Source of the DNA: Nonlabens ponticola
GTDB lineage: Bacteria > Bacteroidota > Bacteroidia > Flavobacteriales > Flavobacteriaceae
Assembly (NCBI RefSeq): GCF_003966335.1
Contig: NZ_CP034549.1
Location: 2,640,001 to 2,672,000 of the forward strand
Direction of reading: 5' to 3'
DNA length: 32,000 nt
This document shows, in pieces, positions 3,146 through 26,948 of the stretch. The position numbers and the translations under genes were made by a program. The number at the start of each line of letters is the position of its first letter. The first letter of the stretch is position 1. Below the pieces are notes generated by a model. That model was given only the letters and a program-made list of their open reading frames with translations, made no database searches and was not told where the DNA came from.

Positions 3146-3163
3146 TTTTAGTATTTTTCTTTT

Positions 3164-4633: not shown

Positions 4634-4644
4634 TTTCTTAGCTC

Positions 4645-7600: not shown

Positions 7601-7662
7601 GTTTGCTGTGCAAATGAGAGAGAGCCCAGAAGTAAAAAAGTGATGGTAATAAATCTATTCAT
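4645..7662 (-). CDS. susC: SusC-family TonB-dependent outer-membrane transporter
   Basis: 1005 aa. Signal peptide, a carboxypeptidase-regulatory-like N-terminal domain (INGTVTDATTGEPLLGATVVVKG), a TonB-box-like DAVVVVGYG, a plug (SISVLKDATASIYGVRASNGVVIITTK), a long beta-barrel and a C-terminal aromatic residue (...GMNVKF). Confidence 0.95.
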   Translation of the reverse strand: MNRFITITFLLLGSLSFAQQTINGTVTDATTGEPLLGATVVVKGTNTAVTTDFDGEFTITANDGAVIVVSYVGYKTKSQTYTGSPLVFNLEQDVAGLDAVVVVGYGTQAVREVTGAVSIVNNETIEELKPTRIEQALQGTVPGVTITSQSGSPGSASNIRIRGIGTNGDSRPLILVDGNVIEDLSVINPNDVESISVLKDATASIYGVRASNGVVIITTKNGRRNQPLKLEYDAYVGFQQTTRKLPTLDALEYALLKNEAFANNGEPIPFPDLTQLSDVDYQDEVFDDAPIFFNNLGIRGGTEKSAYGAGASVLLQDGIVGAEKSKFQRSTFRGNFDHFWLDNLEMKTGVLLNYSNRRAINESGLGSVLFNALNMAPTIPIRDEDGEFSLAEGLGNEVINPIAQIANSFNETNILKVSGNFGLTYSFLNDFELTSRIQTNYSEVSGYSFAPEVFYGSGKVFNVERSVYNTFSNYFRDYTFDSYLNYEHAFAKVHNVQATLGISAFRTTGKFNGFTGFDIPDNDIANASIENAVDVVDNFVNGGDTFDQRLFSQFVRLRYSYDDKYLFTAQARRDGSSNFGPRNKYGFFPSASVGWVPSLEEFMDDEDWIDFLKVRFSYGVAGNDRIPAFAFTSLLNGEGTYPFDDVLVFGTAAGTISNPELKWEEQYVANFGIDANFLDGNLTTSFDVFNRRTEDLLITTSVSGILGAAAPGSGAPVVNGGSVRNRGLEFAIGYNGEITDEFSYGVNYNIGVIDNEVLDVNNTVGFIEGGQFGIGQLPPARMEEGQPLGYFYGLRTDGIFQNAAEVAAHPSQIALGANAQPGDIRFVDVNNDGVIDQDDRVNIGDPIADVTMGLNLSFNYRNFDFQTYLYASIGNDMVRNYERSQNLTNVTTNDLARWTGPGTSNSVPRVTTGATANRIFSDYFVEDASFLRMQNLQLGYTFNDAGARKNIEEVRFYGSVNNLFTLTKYRGFDPSASSGAPIGGGIDPGFYPVPRTFLLGMNVKF
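6185..6202. repeat. Partial copy (13 of 14 core positions) of the GCTTTCGCGAAAGC palindrome, inside susC
   Basis: actttcgcgaaagcgtgc. The 17-nt stretch ctttcgcgaaagcgtgc (6186-6202) is identical to the copy at 18227-18243. On the coding (minus) strand it reads GCT TTC GCG AAA = Ala-Phe-Ala-Lys (EHAFAKVHN). Confidence 0.7.
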
Positions 7663-7869
7663 CAGTTGATAATTATGATATTGATAAATATAGACTGGTT
7701 AAATTATTAATACAGCAATAGAATCATTACAACATCTCTACATTCTCTTAAAATAGCAAAATCTGCAATTCCTGTACTGTTGTAAAACCCGAAAACAGGC
7801 GCGAACAGTGTGTTTACTAAACCACTACAACGTTTTAGTAACTGGGTCTTTAAGATGCTTTTCAGTAAA

Positions 7870-7891
7870 TGTTGTGGTGATGTTGTGGTAA
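7870..7891. repeat. Tandem direct repeat tgttgtggtga / tgttgtggtaa (2 x 11 bp, 10/11 identical) in the regulator-susC intergenic region
   Basis: Read directly from the sequence. It lies 21-42 nt beyond the regulator stop (7912) and ~210 nt upstream of the susC start (7662). The 11-bp period is about one helical turn. Confidence 0.6.
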
Positions 7892-7911
7892 AATACAGTA
7901 ATGTAGCGCGT

Positions 7912-12038: not shown

Positions 12039-12415
12039 TGAAGTATTTGACTATCCTCTTTTTACTAGTTAGTACCACTTGCCTCGCTCAACACGATGGC
12101 ATTGAAATAGATGTAGTTAAAGGACATAAAAAAATCACCTACACGGCCCAAAATACGACCAGCGACACGCTGGATCTGTTTTTTAAAGTCATCAGTGACG
12201 GTTTCCGTCGCAGTGCAGATAGACCGATTATCACGACTGTACCTGCAAAATCTACCATCAATCTACTCACACTTATTCCAAAGAAAAATGCGGATACAAC
12301 GCACACTTACATTGCCGTAGTGACAAAACCTGAGCATAATATCCAGATAAGAAAAACAGATACAGTGGTGCGCGAAATAAGAAAAGTAGATCCTGTCAAA
12401 AAATCTGGTAATTAG
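12038..12415 (+). CDS. Small secreted hypothetical protein
   Basis: 125 aa with signal peptide MKYLTILFLLVSTTCLAQ. No family recognised. Translationally coupled to the preceding ORF. Confidence 0.55.
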   Translation: MKYLTILFLLVSTTCLAQHDGIEIDVVKGHKKITYTAQNTTSDTLDLFFKVISDGFRRSADRPIITTVPAKSTINLLTLIPKKNADTTHTYIAVVTKPEHNIQIRKTDTVVREIRKVDPVKKSGN

Positions 12416-13704
12416 TCTTGCTTGAATAATTCCTTGCGCAATAAGACAGCCAAGACTGCAAAATATAGTAGGTAACTTATCGCGTGCGCCATTACAATAC
12501 CTTCAGTGTCATATTTTCTCACTAGGACATAGCTTGCTATGAGAAATGTTCCTAGACTCACAACCTCGGCAATCAGATATCTTTTCAAGTCGTTTTGAGC
12601 AATGAACCACATGGCCAATACGGTGGTGATTATTTTAATGAAATCACCGATGAGCTGCCATTTGAATAGCACCAGCATTCCTTCAAACTCTTCAGTAAAT
12701 AGAATACTGACTATCAAGTCTCTAGTGATAAAAATAGTCACGAGACCAGCAGCTAGCGGCAAAAGCAATGTCTTGTAAAAGTCAAGGCTTACCATCTTAA
12801 GATTTGATGCATCACTGGACTTGCTGAATTTAGGCAACACATACATACTGATAAGCGTAGTGAAAAACAGCATGTAGTAAGATGATACGCGCTGTATCGC
12901 TTCCCACAAACCTGCGGCATCATCATTGACCACGGCACGCAAATCCTGTCGCACCAAAATATGGACCACAGGAATCAGCACCGCACTCGCAAGCGCCATA
13001 AAGCTGTAGGATAATAAAGGCTTTAAACTGTTTTTGTCAAATGATCCCGTAATTGATGGAAAAAGAGGCAGGTCTTTTCTATGGTAATACCAAATGACGA
13101 TTGCCGTCACACATTGTATGATAGGTGCGATAACAATACCTGTCAAAGCACCGCTTAATTGATTCGTATAAATCAACCATGCACTGACGGCAAAAACCAA
13201 TACATTGACTGCTATATTAAGAGAAATGAATCGCTTGTACCATTCAAATCCCTGCATCATGGATGCGATGAAAATGAATAATGTATAGAATGGTAGTGAG
13301 ATAGCCAGATACTTAAAAACATAGGCATAGCTAGTTTCCAGTCCTATCAAGTAATTATCCAGCACCGAGGCAAGAAAGAAAGTAGTGATTCCTAATATTA
13401 CTGATATAGCAATACCAGCTATCCAGGCCGTGCTATATATTTTGCGCAACTGTTGTGGCTCTTTTTTGAGACTTGCTGCATGTCTTACCAGACCATTCTC
13501 AAGACCTAGCACGCTAAAGGTTTGTACGCCTTGCATGAAATTGCGCAGATTACCCAACACACCCAATCCTGTAGCACCTGCAAAAACGGCTAGAATATAA
13601 GACATCGCAGAGCCAAGACCTATGCGTACCAAAATCTGGATAGAGTTATATCCAGCCACCTTGAGCAATAAATTTTTATTTAAATACTTGAATAGATGTC
13701 TCAT
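12412..13704 (-). CDS. Wzx-type polysaccharide/oligosaccharide flippase (MOP superfamily; WzxE / lipid III flippase-like)
   Basis: 430 aa, hydrophobic throughout with about 12 predicted TM segments. Its start overlaps the aminotransferase stop by 4 nt (13701-13704). The gene order aminotransferase -> flippase resembles wecE-wzxE. Confidence 0.7.
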   Translation of the reverse strand: MRHLFKYLNKNLLLKVAGYNSIQILVRIGLGSAMSYILAVFAGATGLGVLGNLRNFMQGVQTFSVLGLENGLVRHAASLKKEPQQLRKIYSTAWIAGIAISVILGITTFFLASVLDNYLIGLETSYAYVFKYLAISLPFYTLFIFIASMMQGFEWYKRFISLNIAVNVLVFAVSAWLIYTNQLSGALTGIVIAPIIQCVTAIVIWYYHRKDLPLFPSITGSFDKNSLKPLLSYSFMALASAVLIPVVHILVRQDLRAVVNDDAAGLWEAIQRVSSYYMLFFTTLISMYVLPKFSKSSDASNLKMVSLDFYKTLLLPLAAGLVTIFITRDLIVSILFTEEFEGMLVLFKWQLIGDFIKIITTVLAMWFIAQNDLKRYLIAEVVSLGTFLIASYVLVRKYDTEGIVMAHAISYLLYFAVLAVLLRKELFKQD

Positions 13705-14843
13705 TCAAAGCTGTTCACGGTATCAATCACTCGTTGCACTTCCTGATCACTTAATAATGGGTGACACGGAATGCTCAGTTGGGTTTTATGCAGTCGTTCT
13801 GTAACGGGAAAATTAAATGCGTTGAATTCAGGATAGACCTCTTGATGATGTGGCGGAATTTTATAATGAAAATTAGTACCGATTCCAGCGGCATCCATAT
13901 GCTGCACCAGTCTACCTCGATCATCAGAATATATTGGGAAAACATGATGCGCATTGTGCTCGATCCATAAAGAATTAGGCACCTGTATTTTTTCATGTTT
14001 GATGCTGGAAATATAGGTTTCTGCGATCTCGCGACGTCTCGCATTGTCTTGATCTAGTAATGGTAAACGATTTGAGAGAAAACCTGCTTGCAAGGGATCC
14101 AATCGCGAGTTCACACCTAGAACGTCATTGACATATCGCGATTCACGACCATAGTTGGCTATTTTCCTGCACATGCTTCCCAGCTCTTCATCATCTGTCA
14201 CGATGGCTCCAGCATCACCTAATGCGCCCAGATTTTTGGTTGGGTAAAAGGAAAAAGCACTGGCTCTGCCGCGTGAGCCAGATCGCATTCCTTGATCGGT
14301 TCTAGCGCCGTGGGCTTGAGCAGCGTCAGTGTAGATGGGTATTTTTTTTGCTTTCGCGCCTGCCTGCCGGTCAGGCAGGAAAGCATACACCTCATCATCC
14401 ACCAGTTTACCATAAATATCTACCGCAATTACTCCATGGATGTTATCTAGCTGGTTCTTGATTTTATCTGCCGTGAGCAGTAATTCATCCACATCTACAG
14501 GAACAGGTATACAGCCTGCATTAGTGATGCTCAAGAATGTTGCGATGTAGGTATGTGCAGGCACCAGAATTCTAGCAGCTTTAGTTAAAACGCCTAACTC
14601 AACATCTGCACGCAGAATGATTTCTAGAGCTTCCAGACCGTTTGCAACGCCTATACAATGTTGGACACCGCAGTATGCGGCAAATTCGTTTTCAAATCGC
14701 GTGACCATATCGCCACCTATGTAGGTGCCACTATCATGCAAATGCTGCATGACGTCAAGATCCTGTTGCAGGAAACGACCTTGCAGGGACTTGAGATCTA
14801 GATATGGGATAGGAGCTGCCATCAAGCGGTTGAAGTTAATCAA
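13701..14843 (-). CDS. DegT/DnrJ/EryC1/StrS-family PLP-dependent sugar aminotransferase (WecE/RffA-like, dTDP-4-amino-4,6-dideoxyhexose type)
   Basis: 380 aa. Family motifs are TDAAQAHGA and the Schiff-base lysine context SFYPTKNLGALGDAG. It carries an extra LPDRQAG segment encoded by the split palindrome at 14350-14384. Confidence 0.85.
   Translation of the reverse strand: MINFNRLMAAPIPYLDLKSLQGRFLQQDLDVMQHLHDSGTYIGGDMVTRFENEFAAYCGVQHCIGVANGLEALEIILRADVELGVLTKAARILVPAHTYIATFLSITNAGCIPVPVDVDELLLTADKIKNQLDNIHGVIAVDIYGKLVDDEVYAFLPDRQAGAKAKKIPIYTDAAQAHGARTDQGMRSGSRGRASAFSFYPTKNLGALGDAGAIVTDDEELGSMCRKIANYGRESRYVNDVLGVNSRLDPLQAGFLSNRLPLLDQDNARRREIAETYISSIKHEKIQVPNSLWIEHNAHHVFPIYSDDRGRLVQHMDAAGIGTNFHYKIPPHHQEVYPEFNAFNFPVTERLHKTQLSIPCHPLLSDQEVQRVIDTVNSFE
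14350..14384. repeat. Split copy of the palindrome: gctttcgcg + 21-nt hairpin (cctgcctg-ccggt-caggcagg) + aaagc, in frame inside the aminotransferase CDS
   Basis: gctttcgcgcctgcctgccggtcaggcaggaaagc. The outer arms gctttc/gaaagc and inner arms cctgcctg/caggcagg are self-complementary. On the coding strand it reads A F L P D R Q A G A K A. Confidence 0.8.
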
Positions 14844-14853
14844 TTAAGAAAAC

Positions 14854-15156
14854 TCACGTGGCAAAAGCCGCTGTCACCCGTTGCAAATTGAGAAGTACAT
14901 TAACGGCAAGTAAAACAAACAAGATGACATTGACTGCTAGTCCAATAGTTTTGACTCTTGAACTAGGTTCCCGTAAACTTAGCATGGCAAACACAAAACC
15001 TGCCAGAACCGTTACAAAAAACAGGGTGATCAAATAACCTACAATGTCGTCCAGCATGGTGCTGCCGTCTCTATTGATGACAGATAAGGTTAGGAAAACC
15101 ACTAATAATATAATGCTGAATGCTGCCAGGTGATAGCTGCGCTTAGAATGTTTCAT
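14854..15156 (-). CDS. Small integral membrane protein (3 predicted TM helices), function unknown
   Basis: 100 aa. Hydrophobic segments are LAAFSIILLVVFLTLSVI, IVGYLITLFFVTVLAGFVFAML and IGLAVNVILFVLLAVNVLL. It overlaps the upstream gene by 4 nt and ends 10 nt before the aminotransferase start, so it looks embedded in the operon. Confidence 0.5.
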   Translation of the reverse strand: MKHSKRSYHLAAFSIILLVVFLTLSVINRDGSTMLDDIVGYLITLFFVTVLAGFVFAMLSLREPSSRVKTIGLAVNVILFVLLAVNVLLNLQRVTAAFAT

Positions 15157-16115
15157 GCTGTAAAAGTATAGGTTGCCGTAGCAACTTTGAGCTGCTTGCC
15201 GCCTAATTGTTTTTTAAATCGTAGAAGTCCTTGATTGATGCTACCATCGCGTTCATTGACGATACCTAGATCGATGTGTTTTTTACCATCTTGTCTGGCC
15301 TGTGCAATTAATTCCAAGTAAAGATAATCCATGGCATTTTTTTCAAACCCTAGACTGGTACTAGCCGCATACTGAATCTTAAGAATGTTGCCAAAATCAA
15401 AAACTAGTATTCCTGCAATTGGTTCCTGATCAAATTCTACTATGTGAAGTTTTATGCCGTCTGGGAATCTGGATTGTAAGAGCTGTATTTCAGCTAGCGA
15501 GTGAACTGGTGTTGCGTTGTGCCTATTTTTTAAGGATGGCACCAGAATGTTGTTCCAGTAATATGCAAGATCTTCTGATTGCTGTACTTGTAATTGATCA
15601 AACTTACCGTTGCGGTATCCTATGGTTTTTTTGGCGCTAGGTTGCCAGTCAGCGAGATCGATGACGACATCATCGGCTGTATCATTAACGCTGTAACCAT
15701 TGCTATTGAGAGCGTCAAATGTTTTTTGATAGATATCATCATAAATCGCTGGCGGCAGCTTGATTTTTAGGTTTATAATGCTGTTGTTCTGAGAATAGTC
15801 CAGTAAGGCTTGATGCAAATTATCTAGGTCGGTCGCATCTGCTGATACGATCCAACCAGCGTAGGTCAAGCCGTTATGGGAAATCAAATGATCATCTACT
15901 ACATGTGCTGGAAAGCAACCTCTCAGATTATCATCATCGAATGCCATGAGACTGTGATCCTGAAATCGGTCGCTGTGATATTCCATAAACTCACGCTCGT
16001 GCAGGAAACATCCATTGACAGATTGCTGTATAAAGTCATTCCAAGCAGCACGATCGCTAGATGTGTATAGTCTTAAACTCAATGGTGTCATTTGATGTGC
16101 TAAGATAGGCAGCAC
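15153..16115 (-). CDS. GNAT/FemAB-like acyltransferase-fold protein (putative amino-sugar N-acyltransferase)
   Basis: 320 aa. The N-terminal pattern WNDFIQQSVNGCFLHEREFMEYHSDRFQDHSLM resembles FemAB-like/GNAT proteins found in polysaccharide loci. It is the first gene of the operon with the aminotransferase and flippase. The family call rests on memory of sequence patterns only. The start could instead be the internal Met at MTPLSL. Confidence 0.45.
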   Translation of the reverse strand: MLPILAHQMTPLSLRLYTSSDRAAWNDFIQQSVNGCFLHEREFMEYHSDRFQDHSLMAFDDDNLRGCFPAHVVDDHLISHNGLTYAGWIVSADATDLDNLHQALLDYSQNNSIINLKIKLPPAIYDDIYQKTFDALNSNGYSVNDTADDVVIDLADWQPSAKKTIGYRNGKFDQLQVQQSEDLAYYWNNILVPSLKNRHNATPVHSLAEIQLLQSRFPDGIKLHIVEFDQEPIAGILVFDFGNILKIQYAASTSLGFEKNAMDYLYLELIAQARQDGKKHIDLGIVNERDGSINQGLLRFKKQLGGKQLKVATATYTFTA

Positions 16116-18092: not shown

Positions 18093-18114
18093 AAATAGCG
18101 CTCCTTAGCGGCTG

Positions 18115-18122
18115 CAAAAGTA
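18115..18122 (-). promoter_or_regulatory. Candidate Bacteroidota -7 promoter box (TACTTTTG on the minus strand) for typA
   Basis: Matches the TAnnTTTG consensus. It lies 22 nt upstream of the typA ATG, and a TTG is present ~22 nt further upstream (18145-18147 on the plus strand as caa). Confidence 0.35.
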
Positions 18123-18224
18123 CTCTTATTTATTGGTTTATAGTCAAGTAGGGCGTTAAAGTGGTATTTGTTATAGTTTATTGATTAACAGCTATCTAGT
18201 TTTTTTTGGATTTAGTCAGGATAC

Positions 18225-18240
18225 CGCTTTCGCGAAAGCG
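18225..18240. repeat. 16-bp perfect palindrome CGCTTTCGCGAAAGCG
   Basis: Read directly. It lies 133 nt upstream of the typA start, in the typA / UbiA-like divergent region. Confidence 0.9.
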
Positions 18241-18325
18241 TGCGTGAACAGTTTGTGTTGCAACGATCTAGGATATCAAAACCAATATCCACAGTTTATT
18301 TTTGATTTTCATTTTCTTTTTATTC

Positions 18326-18341
18326 CGCTTTCGCGAAAGCG
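18326..18341. repeat. 16-bp perfect palindrome CGCTTTCGCGAAAGCG
   Basis: Read directly. It lies 136 nt upstream of the UbiA-like gene start (18477) and 101 nt from the copy at 18225. Confidence 0.9.
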
Positions 18342-18476
18342 AAATAGATTCCATCGTACATGCTACTAATAGATTGATGAAGTACAAAAGACCACAGTTT
18401 TCATATATTGCCTATAAAGAGATAGACAATTAAAAACTTCATCGATTACCTTAATGAGCGATTTCCCGTAGTCAAT

Positions 18477-19325
18477 ATGGGATTGTTTGCTGTATTATTC
18501 TTTACCGTAAGAGCTGTAGCTTTTGACGGGCAAAACAATCCAATAGATAATGACTTGCAAAAATCCTGGTGGTGGATTGTTACAGGCGTTATAGCAGTAA
18601 TCTCATTTTTCTTCAGACTTAGGGTGTTTGACGAGATTAAGGATTTTTCCATAGACTCTGTCAATCATCCCGATAGGGTTCTTCAAAGTGGACGTGTCCA
18701 TTTAAAGCAGTTGCAGATCATAAGTTATTCGCTAATCGCGCTTGAAGTAGGATGGTCTTTGCTAACAGGTGTGCCCACATTCCTAGGCTGGCTTGCTGCT
18801 GTAGGCTATTCCCTATTGATGCGTTATGAGTTTTTTGTACCTGTGTTTTTAAAAAAGAGCCTTATCCTATATGGGTTCACGCACATGCTTATCATGCCGC
18901 TCATTATTTTATGGATATATGTGGCACACGCAGGTTTATATTTTCCATTAGCTTTCTGGTACGTGTGTGCAGCATCTTTGTTAGCAGGTTTTAGCTTTGA
19001 GATAGCGCGCAAAATTCATGCTCCTAGCCATGAAAGATCAGGAATCGATAGCTATTCAAAATCGTTAGGATTCAAAGTTGCTGTAGGCACATTACTTATT
19101 GTCTTGGCTGGTGGTCTAGCAGTTCAATATCTTCTATTAAATGCACTCGCTGCCAATTGGTATGTGGTAGCGTTGATAGGCATCATTTATCTGCTGTTAC
19201 TGATTCTATACATCACGAACCTGAGGAAGCCTGATGAAAATCAGTTGAGGAAAGGTGAATTGCTGGTAAGCCTGTTCATGATAGCCAGTTACCTGAGTGT
19301 CATTATAGTAGTCAATTTTCTATGA
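18477..19325 (+). CDS. UbiA-superfamily-like polytopic membrane protein (putative prenyltransferase, divergent)
   Basis: 282 aa with ~8 hydrophobic segments. A first Asp-rich motif-like stretch FDEIKDFSIDSVNHPDRVLQSGRV (nt 18627-) resembles NDxxDxxxD...RPLxSG of UbiA enzymes. The second motif region (ARKIHAPSHERSGIDSYSKSLG) is degenerate. An in-frame stop at 18423-18425 limits any N-terminal extension. Confidence 0.5.
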   Translation: MGLFAVLFFTVRAVAFDGQNNPIDNDLQKSWWWIVTGVIAVISFFFRLRVFDEIKDFSIDSVNHPDRVLQSGRVHLKQLQIISYSLIALEVGWSLLTGVPTFLGWLAAVGYSLLMRYEFFVPVFLKKSLILYGFTHMLIMPLIILWIYVAHAGLYFPLAFWYVCAASLLAGFSFEIARKIHAPSHERSGIDSYSKSLGFKVAVGTLLIVLAGGLAVQYLLLNALAANWYVVALIGIIYLLLLILYITNLRKPDENQLRKGELLVSLFMIASYLSVIIVVNFL

Positions 19326-21853
19326 TTCAAAAAGCCTATACTAATAACATGGGCGGCAAGGCTCGTGGCCTCTATAGATTGAAAGAGCTAGGATTAGATG
19401 TTCCCGATTTCATAGTGATACCCTATGATGTTTTCAAAAATGTGGTGGAAAGACATAATGATCCTGATATTCTGACACAGCAATTGGAGAAATATAAACT
19501 GGATCAACAAGTGGTAAGCAGGGTTGAAGAAGCTCTAGCGAAATGGGATTTTCCTAATCAAAAGATAGCCGTAAGATCATCCATTCTAGATGAGGATGGT
19601 AGCGATCATTCCTTTGCTGGTATGATGGACAGTTATTTAAATCTCTATGATAGAGAGAGTGTGTTTGAAGCAATAAAGAAGTGTGCGGCAAGTGCCTATT
19701 CACATCGATCCATCACTTACCGCGAGGAGAACGAGTTGCCCTCACGAGCACGTCCAGCAGTCCTCGTACAAAAACAGATCAACGCAACGGCCAGCGGCGT
19801 GATTTTCACGACGTCGCCTATTTATCCTCAAGAGGTTGCCATACACATGGCGCAAGGCCTGGGCGACAAATTGGTGAGCGGTCAAGTAGCGGCAGATGAG
19901 TTTTATTACTTGAAAAAATCTGGGAAATTACACCGCTGCATGACCACCGATAATCTAGATTTCAATAATGATATATTAGAAGATCCGTCTAGTAGAGAAG
20001 ATAATGACACGATAGGCACATTGCCTGATTATGTTCATCAGGATTTGTTGGATTACGCTTTCGCGAAAGCGGAACAGATAGAAGCCTTATACGGTCCTAG
20101 TGACATTGAGTTTTGTATAAAAGATGACCAATTCTATTTTCTACAATTAAGACCTATTACGACCAAGATTCCCGATGTCACCGTGTTTGATAATTCAAAC
20201 ATTCAAGAAAGTTATTGCGGTGTGACCACACCATTGACGTTTTCATTTGCGACACGTGCCTATGGTACTGTTTATAAGCAAACAATGAAAGTGGTAGGCA
20301 TCAACCAGCGGACGATTGACGACTATCAAAACGTACTCAATAATTTGCTGGCGCTTAGAAAAGGTCGCATTTATTACAACATCAATAACTGGTATCGCGG
20401 CCTGCAGCTGTTGCCATCCTTTAGCCAAAACAAGGAAGACATGGAGGCAATGATGGGACTGGAAGAGCCTGTGGATTTTGTAATTGACACCAAAAAAAGT
20501 TGGCGAGAAAAAATACAATTACTGCCGTCGCTTATTCTGAATCTGTCGCGATTACTGCTTGAATTTAAACGCCTTAAAAAACGTACCGAGCGCTTTAAAC
20601 ACGATTTTAATGAGGTGTATCGCAACTTTTATCGTGACTCAAATCCTTCGGTATCATTGCAAGAGTTCATTAAACGCCGTCATCAATTAGATGAATTATT
20701 GTATCAATGGGACGTGCCTATCATCAACGACTTTAAGGTCATGATGAGCAATGGTAAGGTAAAACGGGCATTGGAAAGCATAGGTATCAAGAAAACGGAA
20801 GCTTTTCTAGCCCTTTATTTATCAAATGATCATGAGATTGAAAGTGCCTTTCCTACCAGACTTATGATTGATCTAGCAAGCGAAGTTGATCGTGATCCAG
20901 AGTTATGTAAACTTATAAAAGCCTTACCTCAAGAATTGCATCATCAAATTAAAGCTAGCTATCCAGAATTTTATTTGAAGGTAGAAGATTTTATGGATAG
21001 ATATGGTGATCGCACTATTGGCGAACTGAAGCTTGAGACTATCACCATGCGGGTTCAACCTCAAATTTTCTATCAATACCTTAAAAACTTATTCGGCTAC
21101 CACAGTATTGATAAAGCTCCACAAAATTTACAGGATACAGCAAAGAAAGAGCTGGTGGAAGCCCTAGATGGTAAGTCCTTTTTTACAAAGCGATCTGTCA
21201 TTAATAAGCTCCATCAATTACAGGATAGCATTAGACGTCGCGAAAGTTTGCGACTGGACCGTACCAGGTTATTCGGTATGTATAGAACTCTTTATAGACA
21301 GTATGCCTCGCATCTAAAGAATCAAGATTTTATTGATCAAATAGATGATATATTCTACCTGACAGAAGATGAATTGATCAATGATCAACAAGATCATTTC
21401 AAAGAGCTTATCACAGAACGTCAAGGCCTTTTTGAATCATATGAATCTCAAGAAGTACCATCTCGTATTGTCCAGCCATATCCACCGGTAGGAAATGAAA
21501 AGCCTAAACTTGATGACAATGAATTAATGGGTCAAGGTTGTCATCCTGGTGAGGCAACTGGCGAGGTTCTCGTTATCACAAATCCTACAGATGATTTGAA
21601 TGTCAAAGACAAAATCATAGTCGCTCAACGTACTGATCCTGGATGGTGTGCGTTATTTCCATCTTGCCGTGCTGTCATTATTGAAAAAGGAAGCATGCTT
21701 TCCCATTCGGTTATCTTACTACGTGAATTAGGAATTCCAACGATTATCAATGTACCTGCGGTGACTAAAATCTTGAAAACCGGTCAAGAAATTAAAATGA
21801 ATGGCAGTACTGGCCACATTCAAATAATACAGAGAACTACTAAGAATGATTGA
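19322..21853 (+). CDS. PEP/pyruvate-binding (PPDK_N ATP-grasp) plus C-terminal PEP-utilising swivel-His domain protein; rifampicin-phosphotransferase-like architecture, substrate unknown
   Basis: 843 aa. The N-terminus GGKARGLYRLKELGLDVPDFIVIP resembles PPDK_N. The extreme C-terminus RTDPGWCALFPSCRAVIIEKGSMLSHSVILLRELGIPTIINV is a mobile phosphohistidine domain (His795, nt 21704-21706). No TIM-barrel PEP/pyruvate domain follows it. ATGA overlap with the upstream gene. Confidence 0.8.
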   Translation: MIQKAYTNNMGGKARGLYRLKELGLDVPDFIVIPYDVFKNVVERHNDPDILTQQLEKYKLDQQVVSRVEEALAKWDFPNQKIAVRSSILDEDGSDHSFAGMMDSYLNLYDRESVFEAIKKCAASAYSHRSITYREENELPSRARPAVLVQKQINATASGVIFTTSPIYPQEVAIHMAQGLGDKLVSGQVAADEFYYLKKSGKLHRCMTTDNLDFNNDILEDPSSREDNDTIGTLPDYVHQDLLDYAFAKAEQIEALYGPSDIEFCIKDDQFYFLQLRPITTKIPDVTVFDNSNIQESYCGVTTPLTFSFATRAYGTVYKQTMKVVGINQRTIDDYQNVLNNLLALRKGRIYYNINNWYRGLQLLPSFSQNKEDMEAMMGLEEPVDFVIDTKKSWREKIQLLPSLILNLSRLLLEFKRLKKRTERFKHDFNEVYRNFYRDSNPSVSLQEFIKRRHQLDELLYQWDVPIINDFKVMMSNGKVKRALESIGIKKTEAFLALYLSNDHEIESAFPTRLMIDLASEVDRDPELCKLIKALPQELHHQIKASYPEFYLKVEDFMDRYGDRTIGELKLETITMRVQPQIFYQYLKNLFGYHSIDKAPQNLQDTAKKELVEALDGKSFFTKRSVINKLHQLQDSIRRRESLRLDRTRLFGMYRTLYRQYASHLKNQDFIDQIDDIFYLTEDELINDQQDHFKELITERQGLFESYESQEVPSRIVQPYPPVGNEKPKLDDNELMGQGCHPGEATGEVLVITNPTDDLNVKDKIIVAQRTDPGWCALFPSCRAVIIEKGSMLSHSVILLRELGIPTIINVPAVTKILKTGQEIKMNGSTGHIQIIQRTTKND
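20056..20071. repeat. 16-bp perfect palindrome CGCTTTCGCGAAAGCG inside the PEP-utilising enzyme CDS
   Basis: Read directly. GCT at 20057 is in frame (codon 246), so it reads Ala-Phe-Ala-Lys-Ala within DYAFAKAEQ. Confidence 0.9.
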
Positions 21854-22907
21854 GCGGAAAGTTTATGAAAAAGGTACAGTAGTAGATCAACCATGGGCAG
21901 ATCTATATGAGGTGGTTTATGGCGAGTTGGAATTTAAACCTGATGAGCCTGCTCATGTTACTCAGTGGCTTTTTAATCACTATGCATCTAGCAATGATAT
22001 CATTGTTTACAAAGCTACAGGTAGTTTGAGCCTTGTGGGAATTTTTCCACATGGATCTGATACTGCTTATTTCGGCTATTGGGAAACCATCAATGATCTT
22101 GATCTTAACCAGCAAGCATTTAAACTGCTGGAAGAGGATGCTTTAAGACAAGATTATACCAGCGTGGTAGGACCATTACATTTTAATACATATCATCGAT
22201 ATAGGCTGCGATTAGGATCAGTACCTAGTTGGAAAATGTTTGATAAAGAACCCGTAAATCCTACATACTATCCAGAAATTATGGAACAATTAGGGTACCG
22301 CATCAAAAACACTTTTCAAAGCCATTGTTTATCTCATGAGGTAATTGAGCAAATGTATGAGGTGGCAAAGTCATTGAGTAAACAACAAGTTCCAGAAGAA
22401 ATTATAATCAGCCAACTGGATAAATCCTTATGGCTAAAGTATGCTGATCAGATATTTGAACTAACGTCTCAAATCTTTTCTGGCAATGCAAACTATAGTG
22501 GCGTTACAAGAGCCGAATTTGATTTGCAATACAATGCTGCGTTTGCGGCTGGTCTGTGCCCGCATTCCTCAAGCTTGCTTATCGATACCGTAAATGATAG
22601 ACTAGCTGCGTTAAGTTTATGCCTGCCTAATTACCATGGTTTAGAAACATCAACTCCTGTGTATGAAGATGATTATGCATCGCTGCAACAGCCTACTTTA
22701 CTTGCTAAAACCGTAGGCGTGCATCCAGATTATAGAGGACAAAACTTAATGAATGCTATGGGTATGTATGGAAGTGCTGGTTTTATAAATAGGTACGATC
22801 AAGTAATTTTTTGCTTGATGAAAGAAGATAATGCATCGCAAAATTTCACTAAATATCTTAAGAAAGAAACAGCATTGTATGGATTGTTTGAAAAATCAAT
22901 TGGTTAA
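21846..22907 (+). CDS. GNAT-like acyltransferase-fold protein with a large N-terminal extension, function unknown
   Basis: 353 aa. The C-terminal stretch TVGVHPDYRGQNLMNAMGMYG resembles the GNAT acyl-CoA-binding motif A (R/Q-x-x-G-x-G/A). It overlaps the upstream gene by 8 nt. The family call is tentative. Confidence 0.45.
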   Translation: MIERKVYEKGTVVDQPWADLYEVVYGELEFKPDEPAHVTQWLFNHYASSNDIIVYKATGSLSLVGIFPHGSDTAYFGYWETINDLDLNQQAFKLLEEDALRQDYTSVVGPLHFNTYHRYRLRLGSVPSWKMFDKEPVNPTYYPEIMEQLGYRIKNTFQSHCLSHEVIEQMYEVAKSLSKQQVPEEIIISQLDKSLWLKYADQIFELTSQIFSGNANYSGVTRAEFDLQYNAAFAAGLCPHSSSLLIDTVNDRLAALSLCLPNYHGLETSTPVYEDDYASLQQPTLLAKTVGVHPDYRGQNLMNAMGMYGSAGFINRYDQVIFCLMKEDNASQNFTKYLKKETALYGLFEKSIG

Positions 22908-24038
22908 ATAATCCTCGCAAAATTGATCAAGTAAAAAATAGGTCTGGTAAACGCGTTCCAAAAATGGATAAGGAGTAATCTTGTGAGCCATAGTATACAA
23001 ACCTAATCTGTGCAGCGCAAATTGAGATGCAGCAAGTTGTAGTGTCCCGACAAATTCTGGTAACTCTTGTGGATAGTCGTAGTTAACATTGAGATGCTCG
23101 TGATAACGATTGATCAGGGTTTCTATCTCACCTTTTCTATCTGCGGTGATTGCAAAACAAATAAATTCTGCAAGATCATAGTGAGGTATGTGCATAGTTG
23201 CCAGTTCCCAATCATAAAGCAATAAGCTATCATTTTTAATACAGCAATTGCGCAGGTTGCAATCATTATGAATGATTGTTTTGGGCAATTCATCTAATCC
23301 TGCGTAAAGTTGAGGTATCTTCTCTAAGTATCTCTCAAGAACAATGCATTGCTCTGACGTGATCAAATTAAGATCTCGCGAATTGTTCAATAGACTAGAT
23401 AGGACAGGTTTTATTTTCTTGTAAAAATTAGAGCTAGGTAAATCATACTGCCATTCATTATCTATCAATCGATCAGCGAGATGCAAAGCATCACCATGCC
23501 AACTAGCTAGATCTATGATGGCGCTGGACAAGTCATTATGTGTCCATACTTCTGGCTGCATGACCGTGTTGAGATTTTGCTGCGCGTACAGATCTTCCAT
23601 AAGTATCATGAATATCCCTTGTTTTTCATCGCGATGCGTACCATAAATAGTTGGCATAACAGCGTGTGTTACATGCTCATATAAGTACAATTCCTTGAAA
23701 TGACTGTTTTCAAATCCCATTAAAGTAGCATACGCTGGATACACGTCCTTTAAAGGCGATGAGGAAAGTTGAGATAGTCCAGTTAGCATTTCAGATGTTT
23801 CAGAGCCAAAGGTCTTTACCTTGAGAACCATTTTTTGTTTCTGAGGCTCTTGGTTTATGCGGTAATCTACACTATAGCCAAAGTGCCCAACCGATAATCC
23901 TTGCTGTGACTGATTAAGCGATGTTAGAATACTTGATGAATTATCAATCGCATAAGGCTCAAGCGATAATATCTTAACCTTTTTTTCCAATCTATCACTC
24001 ATCATTTGTGCGATGAAATTTTTGGAAATCTCTATCAA
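22896..24038 (-). CDS. APH/choline-kinase/EcKL-type small-molecule kinase (phosphotransferase enzyme family)
   Basis: 380 aa. The catalytic loop is HNDCNLRN (aa 257-264, nt 23247-23270, verified by back-translation). The metal-binding motif is DWE (aa 276-278). There is a VLKVK lysine strand (aa 71-75) and a hinge-like ILMEDL (aa 145-150). Confidence 0.75.
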   Translation of the reverse strand: MIEISKNFIAQMMSDRLEKKVKILSLEPYAIDNSSSILTSLNQSQQGLSVGHFGYSVDYRINQEPQKQKMVLKVKTFGSETSEMLTGLSQLSSSPLKDVYPAYATLMGFENSHFKELYLYEHVTHAVMPTIYGTHRDEKQGIFMILMEDLYAQQNLNTVMQPEVWTHNDLSSAIIDLASWHGDALHLADRLIDNEWQYDLPSSNFYKKIKPVLSSLLNNSRDLNLITSEQCIVLERYLEKIPQLYAGLDELPKTIIHNDCNLRNCCIKNDSLLLYDWELATMHIPHYDLAEFICFAITADRKGEIETLINRYHEHLNVNYDYPQELPEFVGTLQLAASQFALHRLGLYTMAHKITPYPFLERVYQTYFLLDQFCEDYLTN

Positions 24039-25165
24039 AAAGCTGTCATTTTTTCCAGTTCGTGTACTCTAGCAGGATCTGGATGGATTTGAAGCACACG
24101 CTTGTTTAAAAAATAGAAACATGCAGTCGTTGCGATACACTGATATTGAAGCCTTGCCTCCATCTCCGCATCAGACTGGCGAGTAATTTGTTGATCCTGA
24201 AGCAAGTTCCAATACACAAGCTTTAAAGACCGTGATCGGGAGAACAACTGTGATACGGCAGATTGAAAATCTGCAGGACTTACGTATTCAAAAATGTTTG
24301 ATAGTGAGGCTTTGGTAACTTCTTGCCCTGGCGCAGAATTCAAGTAATGCATTGCTTCATCCTTAACCACAGTGACTTTATGAACTTGTCTGGCAATGGT
24401 ATCAAAATTTTGTTCCTGATAACATGCTGGCCATAAATGAGGATCGATATTCTCGCAACCGTACATGAAGAACCTTGAATAAAAGTTATGGTTCAGTAAT
24501 TCAACTTTTGAATGTTCTAGTAATCGCTCATAAAACACTTCTCCTGTCGATTGACTCGTATAAGTGAAGAGCTTTGGGTCACGTCCTTGTGACAAATTGT
24601 TCTTATTAAAATAGCTGATGAATAATTCCTTGAATGCAGAATTGTCCAGTTCATCAATAAAAAAATCGGCTTGTTGTGATAATTCTTCAAATTTGAACAA
24701 CTTATCTACTTTAGGCTTTAGATCAACTGGTAGTGATTCATAGAATCCGTGTATATATCTTTCCAGCCTACCCGATTCCATCACCTTATCACCTGTGGTT
24801 TTGAAAAACGCCTTTGTCCATTCTAGCAAGTCCTTATCCATAGTCGCTGACAGGATTTGTATCACTTGCTCTTGCGATATTTTATTAGACAAACCCAAGA
24901 AAGAAGTCAATAATTCGTGATTGTGGTACTGGTATATGTGCAACTTAACCCTTAGTAATTGATTTTGATGCTCATTGACATCAACCGCAGTTACACTTTG
25001 TGGCTCGTCCAGCAAAGCATTAAGTGCATTACATCCAGCCGATGTAATGACCAGCACGTGATCCTGTGTATTGATGTCAAGTGCACGCCGCATGTTATCG
25101 CCACTTTCCCATATCATGGAATAACGCAATTGATCTAGATCTATATTAGAAAAAGCTGACTTCAT
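24035..25165 (-). CDS. BtaA-like / DUF3419-family protein (putative S-adenosylmethionine 3-amino-3-carboxypropyl transferase)
   Basis: 376 aa. The N-terminal LRYSMIWESGDNMRRALDINTQDHVLVITSAGCNALNALLDEPQSVTAVDVNEHQNQLLRVKL matches the pattern I remember for BtaA/DUF3419 (WED...D.VL.I.SAGCNAL...L...P..V.AVD.N..Q..LL.LK). It has 4-nt overlaps with both neighbours. Confidence 0.65.
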   Translation of the reverse strand: MKSAFSNIDLDQLRYSMIWESGDNMRRALDINTQDHVLVITSAGCNALNALLDEPQSVTAVDVNEHQNQLLRVKLHIYQYHNHELLTSFLGLSNKISQEQVIQILSATMDKDLLEWTKAFFKTTGDKVMESGRLERYIHGFYESLPVDLKPKVDKLFKFEELSQQADFFIDELDNSAFKELFISYFNKNNLSQGRDPKLFTYTSQSTGEVFYERLLEHSKVELLNHNFYSRFFMYGCENIDPHLWPACYQEQNFDTIARQVHKVTVVKDEAMHYLNSAPGQEVTKASLSNIFEYVSPADFQSAVSQLFSRSRSLKLVYWNLLQDQQITRQSDAEMEARLQYQCIATTACFYFLNKRVLQIHPDPARVHELEKMTAF

Positions 25166-26562
25166 AAGTCATTATAACGAATTTTGGACAAATGTCTTGC
25201 ATCTACTGGCAGAAATGGATGTTTCTCGACGAGAATCGACTGTATATCGATAATTTTTGTCAAGCAATCAATTACTCGATTACTAGATGCAAATCCAGAG
25301 AAATGGATGCTTGCCTTATTGGGATAAATGATTACTCCAACTTGCGATATTTCTAGCTTGGATAATAAATAATGCTCTATTTGATATGCATAATATCCAC
25401 CGTAGGTCATGGCATTATCCTTGCGCGCAACTAGATATAGCTCGTTATTTAAAAGATATCCGTAGTCACCGGTGTGATAAGACGACTTACTAATCACATG
25501 TTTCCCAGAGACCACGATCTCTCCTATAATGTCGCCATCACCGTTTTTCACCGCGTCATCCTCAATAATTTCAAGCTCGATATCTGGATGAATGGTTCCT
25601 ACACAGTAGCCTAAAAGTGGATCAAGCGATGCATTGTATTCTTTTACTGCTATGGGCTCTGCCTCGGTAGATCCGTAGATGACGTACAATTGAGCGTATT
25701 GAAATGCAATTGATACTCTATCCAGTAATTTGTTAGGGACTGGAGAACCGCCTATACCAATCATTCTTACAGTAGAAACATCAAACTCTCCATCGCTGGA
25801 TTTTTCTATACAATCCAACAGATGTGTAAAATAAAACACATTACCCGTCAATCTAGTCACGCCATGTCGCATGATTTGCTTGAGAATCCTCTCTGGCTCA
25901 AGGTTCTCTAGTTTCCAATCAGGTATATCTGGTACGACCGTTGTCACTCCAGCATTGAGATTATGCAAAAGCAGGTTAGGAAAAAGAGGTAAATCGATCT
26001 CGTCGTCTTGAGGATAAAATATCTTTAGAATAGCCTCGTGCTGGTTGATAAGATCTTGGTGGGTACGCTGGATAGGCTTACTCACATCAGTACTGCCAGA
26101 CGTATGCGATATGAGAGCTAATGTATCACCATCCAGAACCTTAAGTTTAAAAAATCTATTTTTTGAAAGAGCTATTCCTTGCAGCATTTGAATACCTAGA
26201 CTATTACAAAGTACCCTAATGAGAAAATTGTTAGAATCAAGTATCAAATATCTGATTTTGTGATTCCAAATAAATGATAGCAAATGCCACTTAGAACTTT
26301 GACGAGGTAAACTCGTGAGTGCGACACCTTGATGCAAACTCGCTAGGATAACATGCAAATTTTTATTTGAAATACTAGACATTGGCAGTGCGAGCGAATT
26401 TTTCACGGTACCCAGTGAATTAAAGTAACTCTCAAAAGAAATAACTCTATCAGCCAATTGCCCGTATGTCAATTCTAGAATAGCTGGATTTGGCCAGATA
26501 ATCGCCGTCTTTTGAGCATGCTTTACAGCTAGGTCAAAGAAAGTAGCAAGGAGGTTGGGCAT
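25162..26562 (-). CDS. Adenylate-forming enzyme (ANL superfamily: acyl/aryl-CoA ligase or stand-alone adenylation enzyme), short form
   Basis: 466 aa. Motifs are ISHTSGSTDVSKP (variant of TSGSTGxPK), YGSTE, GEIVVSG, YHTGDYGYL, VARKDN..YGGYYAYQIE and a C-terminal HLSKIRY lysine. Confidence 0.8.
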   Translation of the reverse strand: MPNLLATFFDLAVKHAQKTAIIWPNPAILELTYGQLADRVISFESYFNSLGTVKNSLALPMSSISNKNLHVILASLHQGVALTSLPRQSSKWHLLSFIWNHKIRYLILDSNNFLIRVLCNSLGIQMLQGIALSKNRFFKLKVLDGDTLALISHTSGSTDVSKPIQRTHQDLINQHEAILKIFYPQDDEIDLPLFPNLLLHNLNAGVTTVVPDIPDWKLENLEPERILKQIMRHGVTRLTGNVFYFTHLLDCIEKSSDGEFDVSTVRMIGIGGSPVPNKLLDRVSIAFQYAQLYVIYGSTEAEPIAVKEYNASLDPLLGYCVGTIHPDIELEIIEDDAVKNGDGDIIGEIVVSGKHVISKSSYHTGDYGYLLNNELYLVARKDNAMTYGGYYAYQIEHYLLSKLEISQVGVIIYPNKASIHFSGFASSNRVIDCLTKIIDIQSILVEKHPFLPVDARHLSKIRYNDL

Positions 26563-26754
26563 AGGTATTTAAAAGTAGTGCGTTCAATGTACAATTTATT
26601 TAATGGCCGTCATTGTAAGATGAGATCGAGCTAGGTTACAAATCGACAATAAGGATCGATGTTACTATCATTAATTTAGAAATTGGTGCCTGTCAATGAT
26701 CTCAATCCGTTTCATAGCCACGCAATTTCCTTGTTCATTAGTAAGTTTTCAGTA

Positions 26755-26770
26755 CGCTTTCGCGAAAGCG
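26755..26770. repeat. 16-bp perfect palindrome CGCTTTCGCGAAAGCG
   Basis: Read directly. It lies in the divergent region, 193 nt upstream of the adenylating-enzyme start (26562) and 179 nt upstream of the HAD ATG (26949). Confidence 0.9.
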
Positions 26771-26948
26771 AACTAACCAACATTACCCAAACAATAGTAA
26801 GTCGTTCGAATATTCTCCAGCTCCTAAAAAATGACCTCTTAATTAATTTTGTTTAAGATTCTAATTCCCAAAGAACATCACTGCATTAAACTTTAAACCG
26901 TAAACTAAAGCAATGAACAACTAGCTACCTTTGAGTCAAAATAGCCTA

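Follow-up and report, generated by a model that had tools for sequence, protein, structure and literature searches.

What do the six tightly packed genes at positions 18477-26562 of the DNA analysed here make together, if they act together at all? The window, as we call the whole stretch, comprises 32,000 nucleotides (32 kb) of the Nonlabens ponticola genome (Bacteroidota, Flavobacteriaceae; contig NZ_CP034549.1, positions 2,640,001 to 2,672,000). The six open reading frames (ORFs), denoted O1 to O6 in the order of their coordinates (Table 1), are predicted to encode a UbiA-type membrane transferase (O1), a swivelling-His dikinase (O2), a tandem-GNAT protein (O3), an EcKL/APH-type kinase (O4), a transferase of the DUF3419 family (O5), and an ANL adenylate-forming enzyme (O6). 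An earlier sequence-only reading of this region had described two convergent operons with an enzyme combination that it could not assign to any described pathway, and had proposed that they make or remodel an amphiphilic or prenylated product. Here we find that the six genes are functionally linked and represent the Bacteroidota version of a widespread operon, the pathway being split over two convergent operons in N. ponticola. On balance, they probably encode a single pathway, the product of which would be a membrane-associated amphiphile that has an isoprenoid part and is exported to the cell envelope.

Conservation of the gene set across bacterial phyla

The O3 family was used as the marker to locate the cluster in other genomes. 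For the Bacteroidota sample, one genome per species was scanned with this marker, resulting in 75 loci, essentially all of them from Bacteroidota (Flavobacteriia, Cytophagia, Sphingobacteriia, Chitinophagia, and Saprospiria), with a patchy distribution among species. When 78 loci were searched by tblastn for the six window proteins, O3 was detected in 77, O2 in 76, O5 in 70, O1 in 69, O4 in 68, and O6 in 66; most of the absences fall on short contigs or contig ends. Co-occurrence and conserved order in related genomes had been named as the check on the proposed linkage, and the outcome supports it: the six genes are found together as two rigid, ordered modules, O1-O2-O3 and O6-O5-O4, within flanks that differ between loci. 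The flanking genes are unrelated from one locus to another, and the typA, HAD, and FemAB-like neighbours are kept only in other Nonlabens. The two modules are convergent in most genomes, but co-directional arrangements, either O6-O5-O4-O1-O2-O3 or O6-O5-O4-O2-O3-O1, occur elsewhere. Altogether, about 65 of the 75 Bacteroidota genomes have the modules side by side, in three relative arrangements; three loci (L023, L025, and L039) have no O4-O6 module within 10 kb. That the modules remain adjacent even when rearranged argues strongly that they are functionally linked.

De novo clustering of the ORFs in these loci revealed a seventh partner in 42 Bacteroidota loci, an MMPL/HAE3-type transporter of the resistance-nodulation-division (RND) type (for example, at 3613-6021 in locus L001). 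The transporter gene adjoins O1, almost always divergently, and moves with O1 where O1 has been relocated. Like exporters of the HpnN/MmpL type, the linked transporter matches HAE3 and MMPL models, as well as a sterol-sensing-type domain, but its HAE3 score of 144 bits is below the cut-off of 352. The linkage of this predicted exporter to O1 suggests that a hydrophobic product is exported. Two loci, L020 and L030, come from contigs of metagenome-assembled genomes (MAGs) labelled 'Janthinobacterium lividum', but contain a Hymenobacter-like cluster (46-47% identity to O3, in the Hymenobacter arrangement); contigs of Bacteroidota were probably mis-binned in both cases.

A sister operon in other phyla was found by searching plasmid records with O5. 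In Roseinatronobacter (Alphaproteobacteria), this operon encodes UbiA, PPDK-like, and DUF3419 proteins, hypothetical proteins of 439 and 281 amino acids (aa), and an ANL enzyme, without HMG-CoA reductase (HMGR; HMG, 3-hydroxy-3-methylglutaryl). In Brevibacillus laterosporus, the array consists of genes for HMG-CoA reductase, UbiA, a PPDK-like protein, DUF3419, a 439-aa membrane protein (hereafter, X), GNAT, ANL, and P450. The order HMGR-UbiA-dikinase-DUF3419-X-GNAT-ANL also occurs in Leptolyngbya and is invariant in 44 metagenome and genome loci of at least 6 kb. Overall, the sister operon spans Bacillota, Cyanobacteria, Alphaproteobacteria, and many metagenomes. The proteins of the five shared families align with those of the window, and their best NCBIfam models are the same (PRK13592/PRK05951, PRK06241.2-2, and PRK09274). 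The accessory parts of the two versions are distinct: the EcKL kinase O4 is restricted to the Bacteroidota version, being missing from all 44 non-Bacteroidota loci, where MMPL was never found either, and neither X nor HMGR nor a MacB exporter is encoded within 10 kb of the Bacteroidota clusters. The GNAT branch of the sister operon yielded 1527 matches, in Cyanobacteria, Chloroflexota, Tectomicrobia, Nitrospinae, and others, and a metagenome scan detected more than 461 relatives of the marker GNAT. A profile of the Bacteroidota O3 family retrieved 2073 clusters at 50% identity (E ≤ 1e-3).

Of the sister-operon loci, 27 extend to the UbiA end, and 19 of these encode HMGR. By its scores on TIGR00533 (326-345 bits, short of the cut-off of 442), it is an NADPH-type, class-I-like enzyme. 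A native mevalonate pathway has been reported for Bacteroidetes such as Flavobacterium johnsoniae, whereas cyanobacteria use the methylerythritol phosphate (MEP) pathway (PMC6107057, PMC4026382). The lack of HMGR in the Bacteroidota version fits this native mevalonate pathway, in that HMGR would be needed only in the operon of the other phyla.

Protein X is named 'diacylglycerol/polyprenol kinase family protein' by NCBI and 'phytol kinase' by JGI, but did not match any entry in searches against Pfam, NCBIfam, and PDB sequences. A natural fusion of an X-like domain with a DUF92/TIGR00297 domain was observed in one protein (P0415, 481 aa). DUF92 is the family of the plant phytyl-phosphate kinase VTE6, and the fusion would suggest a protein that phosphorylates prenols in two steps. 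Sequence equivalence of X and O4 was considered and rejected, as no similarity was found; any equivalence between the two would be one of position and function.

Some sister operons include a MacB/FtsX ABC exporter gene between X and GNAT, and genes for P450, sulfotransferase, and hydrolase are occasional accessories. A partial variant (L084, 6303-15147) encodes a 716-aa protein, an X-like protein of 448 aa, GNAT, ANL, sulfotransferase, and P450, but no UbiA, dikinase, or DUF3419. The neighbours of this variant, and those of two loci with a stand-alone GNAT-ANL pair (L117 and L122, see below), were uninformative as to the substrate.

Family assignment of the six proteins

All six family calls of the sequence-only reading held, five of them through profile hidden Markov models (Pfam and NCBIfam) and the GNAT call solely through its fold. 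In each of the six families, 59-73 orthologues keep the catalytic motifs. The claim that the set cannot be assigned to a described pathway was likewise supported, given that no protein reaches the curated NCBIfam cut-off of a characterised family.

O1 matches Pfam UbiA (PF01040; 1.3e-15, 57.8 bits against a cut-off of 34.2) over profile positions 17-241 of 250. Its best NCBIfam models, PRK05951 (81 bits, cut-off 239) and PRK13592 (65, cut-off 443), are both uncharacterised, and these are followed by models of the DGGGPS, EboC (21, cut-off 250), and ChlG (20, cut-off 313) types, all below cut-off. Thus, for none of the characterised subfamilies (UbiA, MenA, ChlG, DGGGPS, and EboC) is the NCBIfam cut-off reached. 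The signature RxRxxDExKDxxxD ... SHMxxMPLI ... ExxRKxxxPxxExxGxxxYS is common to O1 and its Brevibacillus, Roseinatronobacter, and Leptolyngbya orthologues and includes the conserved first acidic motif, DExKDxxxD. Pfam membership, together with the polytopic membrane topology and two acidic motifs, the second of them a variant, places O1 in the UbiA superfamily.

As called from the ATG at 18477, O1 consists of 282 aa and lacks the N-terminal motif YLxERFP that is conserved in the family. This motif (IDYLNERFPVVN) is, however, encoded in frame between the TAG stop at 18423 and the ATG at 18477. The in-frame upstream segment (TAG-ACA-ATT...) encodes TIKNFIDYLNERFPVVN-M and contains no in-frame ATG, GTG, or TTG; an equivalent start arrangement is seen in a related Nonlabens MAG (L004). 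Because the conserved motif lies upstream in frame without a canonical start codon, translation of O1 probably begins at a rare start codon, ATT at 18429 or ATC at 18441.

O2 contains an ATP-grasp domain (PPDK_N, 3.6e-48, residues 9-282 of 843) and a swivelling-His domain (PEP-utilizers, 1.2e-18, residues 762-831). No PEP-utilizers_C match, and hence no C-terminal phosphoenolpyruvate (PEP)/pyruvate TIM barrel, was detected in the Pfam search, and the protein ends 12 residues past the His domain, leaving no room for such a barrel. The Rph_4th domain is recorded in O2 orthologues. The conserved motifs are GSxLSHSVILLRE (with the swivel His), TDPGW, and VRSSxxDEDG. The best NCBIfam model is PRK06241.2-2, an uncharacterised subfamily (631 bits, cut-off 883). 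O2 shares with rifampicin phosphotransferase (Rph) and with PigC/RedH the architecture of ATP-grasp, central substrate, and swivelling-His domains, the catalytic His motif, and the lack of the barrel, but is far below the respective cut-offs: 216 bits on NF041857 (cut-off 999) and 139 on NF000283 (cut-off 1700) for Rph, 233 for PigC (cut-off 1300), and 220 for RedH (cut-off 1350). Moreover, its context is biosynthetic rather than one of resistance or prodiginine synthesis, with no pig or red genes near O2 in the window. The nearest solved structure is that of the Listeria rifampicin phosphotransferase (5fbs/5hv1, 174 bits). PEP synthase differs from O2 in its barrel, and O2 scores only 163 bits on the corresponding equivalog model, TIGR01418 (cut-off 740).

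No match to O3 was found in Pfam or NCBIfam. An AlphaFold2 model built on 38 homologues (predicted local distance difference test, pLDDT, 92) gave Foldseek matches to tandem GNATs at E-values from 2e-13 to 4e-9, with probability 1.0 and a TM score of about 0.54; these include MAB_4324, the clavulanate protein CBG, glucosamine N-acetyltransferase, MshD, and the aminoacyl-tRNA-dependent Sba18/Sbb17. The conserved motifs are GVHPxxR(G)Q and IFCLMxxxNxS. The modelled structure is that of a predicted tandem GNAT with the acyl-CoA-binding motif A in its C-terminal domain. O3 and the sister-operon GNATs are homologous (3e-11, 2e-10, and 1e-13). In agreement with the origin of the window, O3 has a counterpart of 100% identity among N. 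ponticola proteins.

O4 matches EcKL (4.5e-10, 39.8 bits against a cut-off of 22) and APH (6.4e-9, 36.4 against 23.2). The motifs HNDxNxRN and YDWE (in 63 orthologues) and the VxK lysine are conserved. By these Pfam matches, the HxDxxxxN catalytic loop, and the metal-binding Asp, O4 is a predicted kinase of the EcKL/APH type. Searches of solved-structure sequences yielded no useful relatives of O4, O1, or O5.

O5 is a clear match to DUF3419 (PF11899; 4.1e-41, 142 bits against a cut-off of 28), with the conserved motifs ITSAGCNxLN (the SAM motif, in 64 orthologues), DxNxxQN, and LSNIFEY, but it matched no NCBIfam model, BtaA models included. Against DUF3419 proteins that are linked to the cluster in other phyla, O5 reaches 96-129 bits, compared with 76 bits (26% identity) against the BtaA of Chondrinema, which is paired with BtaB; this canonical pair of BtaA and methyltransferase within Bacteroidota is encoded on a plasmid.

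O6 matches AMP-binding (4.7e-25), and its best NCBIfam model is PRK09274, with 165 bits for O6 and 281-403 bits for the orthologues in the sister operon. On the model of the olefin beta-lactone synthetase OleC (cut-off 900), O6 scores 81 bits and the Brevibacillus orthologue 253 bits over its full length. The ANL motifs A3, A5, A7, A8, and A10 are conserved, including the SKI lysine of A10. No ole genes are present in the window, and OleA, OleB, and OleD genes do not accompany the cluster, so that O6 falls outside OleC proper and appears, from its profile scores, to belong to a PRK09274 branch related to OleC and no more than that. Characterised members of this ANL branch act on beta-hydroxy acids, and both mevalonate and HMG are beta-hydroxy acids.

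A proposed pathway and its alternatives

We rate this apparently uncharacterised cluster as a membrane pathway for isoprenoid conjugates that is centred on UbiA and has tailoring enzymes in a combination without precedent. By analogy with the known members of the families involved, the best reading of the head group of the amphiphile is that it is SAM-derived and N-acylated (SAM, S-adenosylmethionine). The following sequence of reactions can be envisaged. The EcKL kinase O4, or X in other phyla, would phosphorylate either an alcohol, lipid or isoprenoid, or the head group as it grows, and the dikinase O2 would phosphorylate it again, converting ATP to AMP and giving a donor activated as the diphosphate or else a leaving group that is phosphorylated. 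In the membrane, the UbiA-type O1 would then transfer an alkyl or prenyl group in a diphosphate-dependent reaction, after which the BtaA-like O5 would place SAM's 3-amino-3-carboxypropyl group on the intermediate, at a hydroxyl or a carboxyl. O6 would activate a carboxylic acid, for which a mevalonate- or HMG-like beta-hydroxy acid is an attractive candidate and a fatty acid a possible one, and the tandem GNAT O3 would pass the activated acid to the new amine. Finally, the MMPL/HAE3 transporter, which in N. ponticola would be encoded elsewhere or be absent, would export the product.

In both versions, the cluster is often accompanied by a gene for an exporter of lipophilic cargo. The amphiphilic or prenylated product that had been proposed earlier gains support from these UbiA-linked exporters, from the HMGR, and from the annotation of X as a polyprenol or phytol kinase. 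A more specific version, which we put forward tentatively, as possible but on the whole doubtful, is that the cluster makes a widespread new class of exported isoprenoid amino-acid lipids, with a SAM-derived, homoserine-type head N-acylated by a mevalonate/HMG-type or fatty acid, and with the dikinase, in a role new to such enzymes, activating a lipid alcohol or head group that the UbiA-type enzyme would then transfer or use.

One parallel is the phytol salvage of plants and cyanobacteria, in which the phytol kinase VTE5 and the phytyl-phosphate kinase VTE6 act before a UbiA-type enzyme, VTE2 or ChlG. The cluster may resemble this system in combining two phosphorylations with a UbiA-family membrane transferase. 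However, the first kinase of the Bacteroidota cluster has a soluble EcKL/APH fold, the second would be a phosphohistidine dikinase without precedent in this role, and phytol salvage has no counterpart of the ANL, GNAT, and DUF3419 proteins. The ebo cluster (EboA-F, with the UbiA-like EboC) occurs in Bacteroidota and cyanobacteria (PMC5133447) and similarly combines a UbiA-like enzyme in a compact, conserved operon with a poorly known product and a similar phyletic range; the present cluster lacks the TatD-like protein, sugar-phosphate cyclase, xylose-isomerase-like TIM barrel, and phosphatase, and the EboC score of O1 is given above. The Lipocone/YfiM-1 neighbourhood contains a UbiA gene as well, but its gene set differs from that of the cluster, which is described neither in the Lipocone work nor in a 2026 HMGR study. 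A literature search, with thin coverage of subscription journals, did not retrieve a description of this gene combination. We do not call the system categorically new, because all its parts belong to known superfamilies.

Several observations weigh against this interpretation. All step assignments are by analogy, and each of them, taken singly, is doubtful at best. The oxygens that swivelling-His enzymes are known to phosphorylate belong to hydroxyls or enols, and none of these enzymes is known to make prenyl diphosphates. The second acidic motif of O1 (ExxRK...ExxGxD/ExYS) is atypical, yet conserved across phyla, and O5 could move a methyl instead of the aminocarboxypropyl group. O4 is dispensable or replaced in some lineages: the Pedobacter loci L002/L033, L050, and L056 are without it, O3 being directly convergent on O5 there, although Pedobacter L071 retains the kinase. 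There is no MMPL gene in the 32-kb N. ponticola window, and the AlphaFold2 model of X (pLDDT 85) has a best Foldseek E-value of 0.07, with no significant match. The GNAT-ANL pair stands alone in L117 and L122, and in L117 it adjoins MacB/FtsX-type transporters; these stand-alone pairs imply that the pair may have a more general role. The fit with the mevalonate pathway rests on Flavobacterium johnsoniae rather than on Nonlabens or Hymenobacter.

The main alternative, which we regard as rather unlikely, is that the product is a soluble or secreted specialised metabolite, either a mevalonate- or HMG-derived N-acyl amino acid or a compound of the beta-lactone type; in the latter case, the OleC-like ANL enzyme would act with the GNAT, O2 would be a PigC-like, ATP-dependent condensing enzyme, and O1 would add a short prenyl. 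The placement of O6 on the PRK09274/OleC-related branch agrees with this explanation, the PigC and RedH scores of O2 match its Rph score, and a stand-alone class-I-like HMGR in the operons of MEP-pathway organisms suggests mevalonate as a building block. There is also a possible precedent in fungi, where SidI is reportedly a mevalonyl-CoA ligase and SidF a transacylase: the adjacent ANL and GNAT of the sister operon, together with HMGR, recall such a route, in which mevalonate is activated and passed on to an amine, but the six-gene cluster is without the hydroxyornithine pathway. The species distribution is patchy, and the occasional P450, sulfotransferase, and hydrolase genes recall natural-product clusters. 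What speaks for a membrane product instead is the presence of two integral-membrane enzymes, O1 and X, and of lipid-type exporters (MMPL/HAE3 and MacB/FtsX) as the most regular accessories. Furthermore, the cluster includes no polyketide synthase, nonribosomal peptide synthetase, or carrier protein, and the extreme rigidity of its gene order from phylum to phylum would be unusual in a natural-product cluster of the diversifying kind.

The remaining explanations account for fewer of the genes. It is improbable that the cluster makes a betaine lipid of the diacylglyceryl-trimethylhomoserine (DGTS) type, or another phosphorus-sparing lipid, with O5 acting as BtaA on diacylglycerol and the other enzymes tailoring the homoserine head. 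O5 resembles BtaA in its superfamily and conserved SAM-binding motif, its likely chemistry is aminocarboxypropyl transfer to a lipid hydroxyl, and GNAT and ANL could N-acylate the homoserine amine in place of methylation by BtaB. Nevertheless, the betaine-lipid analogy drawn by the sequence-only reading was not sustained: no BtaB-type methyltransferase occurs in or near the cluster in about 120 loci, Bacteroidota and sister operon together, O5 is closer to the cluster-linked DUF3419 proteins than to the methyltransferase-paired BtaA and matches no NCBIfam model, and the UbiA enzyme, dikinase, and HMGR would be left without a role, as neither UbiA and dikinase nor GNAT and ANL have one in DGTS synthesis. 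Less probable still is an island for inactivation of antibiotics or xenobiotics, in which the Rph-like, APH-type, and GNAT proteins would be independent resistance enzymes and the other genes bystanders. Although O2 has a rifampicin phosphotransferase as its nearest solved structure, and the APH and GNAT folds are classic among drug-modifying enzymes, the score of O2 is far from the Rph cut-off (216 against 999), synteny with UbiA, DUF3419, and ANL is conserved across phyla, with HMGR in the sister operon, which has no APH-type kinase, and no mobile-element genes were found at the cluster borders in the window. That two unrelated operons came to lie back to back by chance is the least credible explanation of all. 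They are separate transcription units on opposite strands, and the three loci without a nearby O4-O6 module would agree with independence, but chance adjacency is contradicted by the synteny result, that is, adjacency in about 65 of 75 genomes in three arrangements with non-conserved flanks, and by the interleaving of members of both modules in a single operon in other phyla.

If the cluster does make an exported isoprenoid amphiphile, an unstudied envelope-lipid or isoprenoid-conjugate pathway would be present in many soil, freshwater, and marine bacteria, including at least 75 Bacteroidota species. It would imply new chemistry for BtaA-like transferases, Rph/PigC-type dikinases, and the PRK09274/OleC-related ANL branch, each of which has few known reactions, and would explain the lone class-I-like HMG-CoA reductase of MEP-pathway bacteria such as cyanobacteria. 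The rigid seven-gene operon is a directly testable unit for heterologous expression.

Layout of the locus, the palindrome, and neighbouring genes

The layout of six ORFs without intergenic space, with the overlaps reported earlier, was borne out by reading the ORFs and their junctions. O1 and O2 meet at ATGA (19322-19325), O2 and O3 overlap by ATGATTGA (21846-21853), and the convergent 3' ends of O3 and O4 overlap by 12 nt (22896-22907). The O4/O5 junction is TTGA (24035-24038), which means that O4 would start on TTG, and the O5/O6 junction is ATGA (25162-25165).

Table 1. Positions of the cluster genes and of other features in the 32-kb window.
Feature	Positions	Strand	Basis or remark
O1, predicted UbiA-superfamily polytopic membrane transferase	18477-19325 as called; 18429..19325 with likely start	+	Pfam UbiA
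O2, predicted ATP-grasp and swivelling-His dikinase, Rph/PigC architecture	19322-21853	+	PPDK_N, PEP-utilizers
O3, predicted tandem-GNAT acyl (or aminoacyl) transferase	21846-22907	+	AlphaFold2 model and Foldseek
O4, predicted soluble EcKL/APH-fold small-molecule kinase	22896-24038	-	Pfam EcKL, APH
O5, predicted DUF3419 (BtaA-superfamily) SAM-dependent transferase	24035-25165	-	Pfam DUF3419
O6, predicted short ANL adenylate-forming enzyme, PRK09274/OleC-related branch	25162-26562	-	Pfam AMP-binding
typA-O1 intergenic region, presumed O1-O2-O3 promoter region	18093..18428		two exact palindrome copies
O6-HAD intergenic region, presumed O6-O5-O4 promoter region	26563..26930		one palindrome copy
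Palindrome copies (16 nt each)	2453, 6184, 11555, 18225, 18326, 20056, 26755, 29179
SusC-like TonB receptor	4645-7662	-
SusD-like protein	3164-4633	-
PKD/CBM-domain protein	1109-3145	-
930-aa regulator with LuxR-type helix-turn-helix	7912-10704	-

The sequence CGCTTTCGCGAAAGCG is a perfect 16-bp palindrome with eight copies (at most two mismatches) across the window, four exact and four near-exact. Five copies are intergenic and three are inside ORFs, including one in O2 that encodes YAFAKAE. The palindrome had been reported from both outward-facing promoter regions, and copies are indeed present at both, at 18225-18240 and 18326-18341 between typA and O1 and at 26755-26770 between O6 and the HAD gene; a special role for the cluster, however, did not stand. 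Outside the window, among 165 fetched loci, the palindrome was found only in the related Nonlabens MAG L004 (at 2612 and 6413), where the copy at 6413-6428 is upstream of O1, in a position equivalent to that of a window copy. An operator specific to the cluster is ruled out by the dispersal, the three coding copies, and the restriction to Nonlabens. The palindrome is a dispersed motif specific to this genus and may be the operator of a global regulator or an element similar to repetitive extragenic palindromes (REP).

The housekeeping neighbours on the two sides, typA and the HAD gene, were confirmed by the ORF list and profile searches. Upstream of typA, genes for a Wzx/MurJ-like flippase, a DegT-type aminotransferase, and a FemAB-family protein, the last scoring 51 bits on the PEP-CTERM-associated model TIGR03019, follow each other in a row (12412-16115, minus strand). 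This row looks like a small glycan or envelope-modification set that is unrelated to the six-gene cluster. Farther upstream, on the same strand, the region 1109-10704 is an ordinary polysaccharide-utilisation locus, the genes of which are listed in Table 1.

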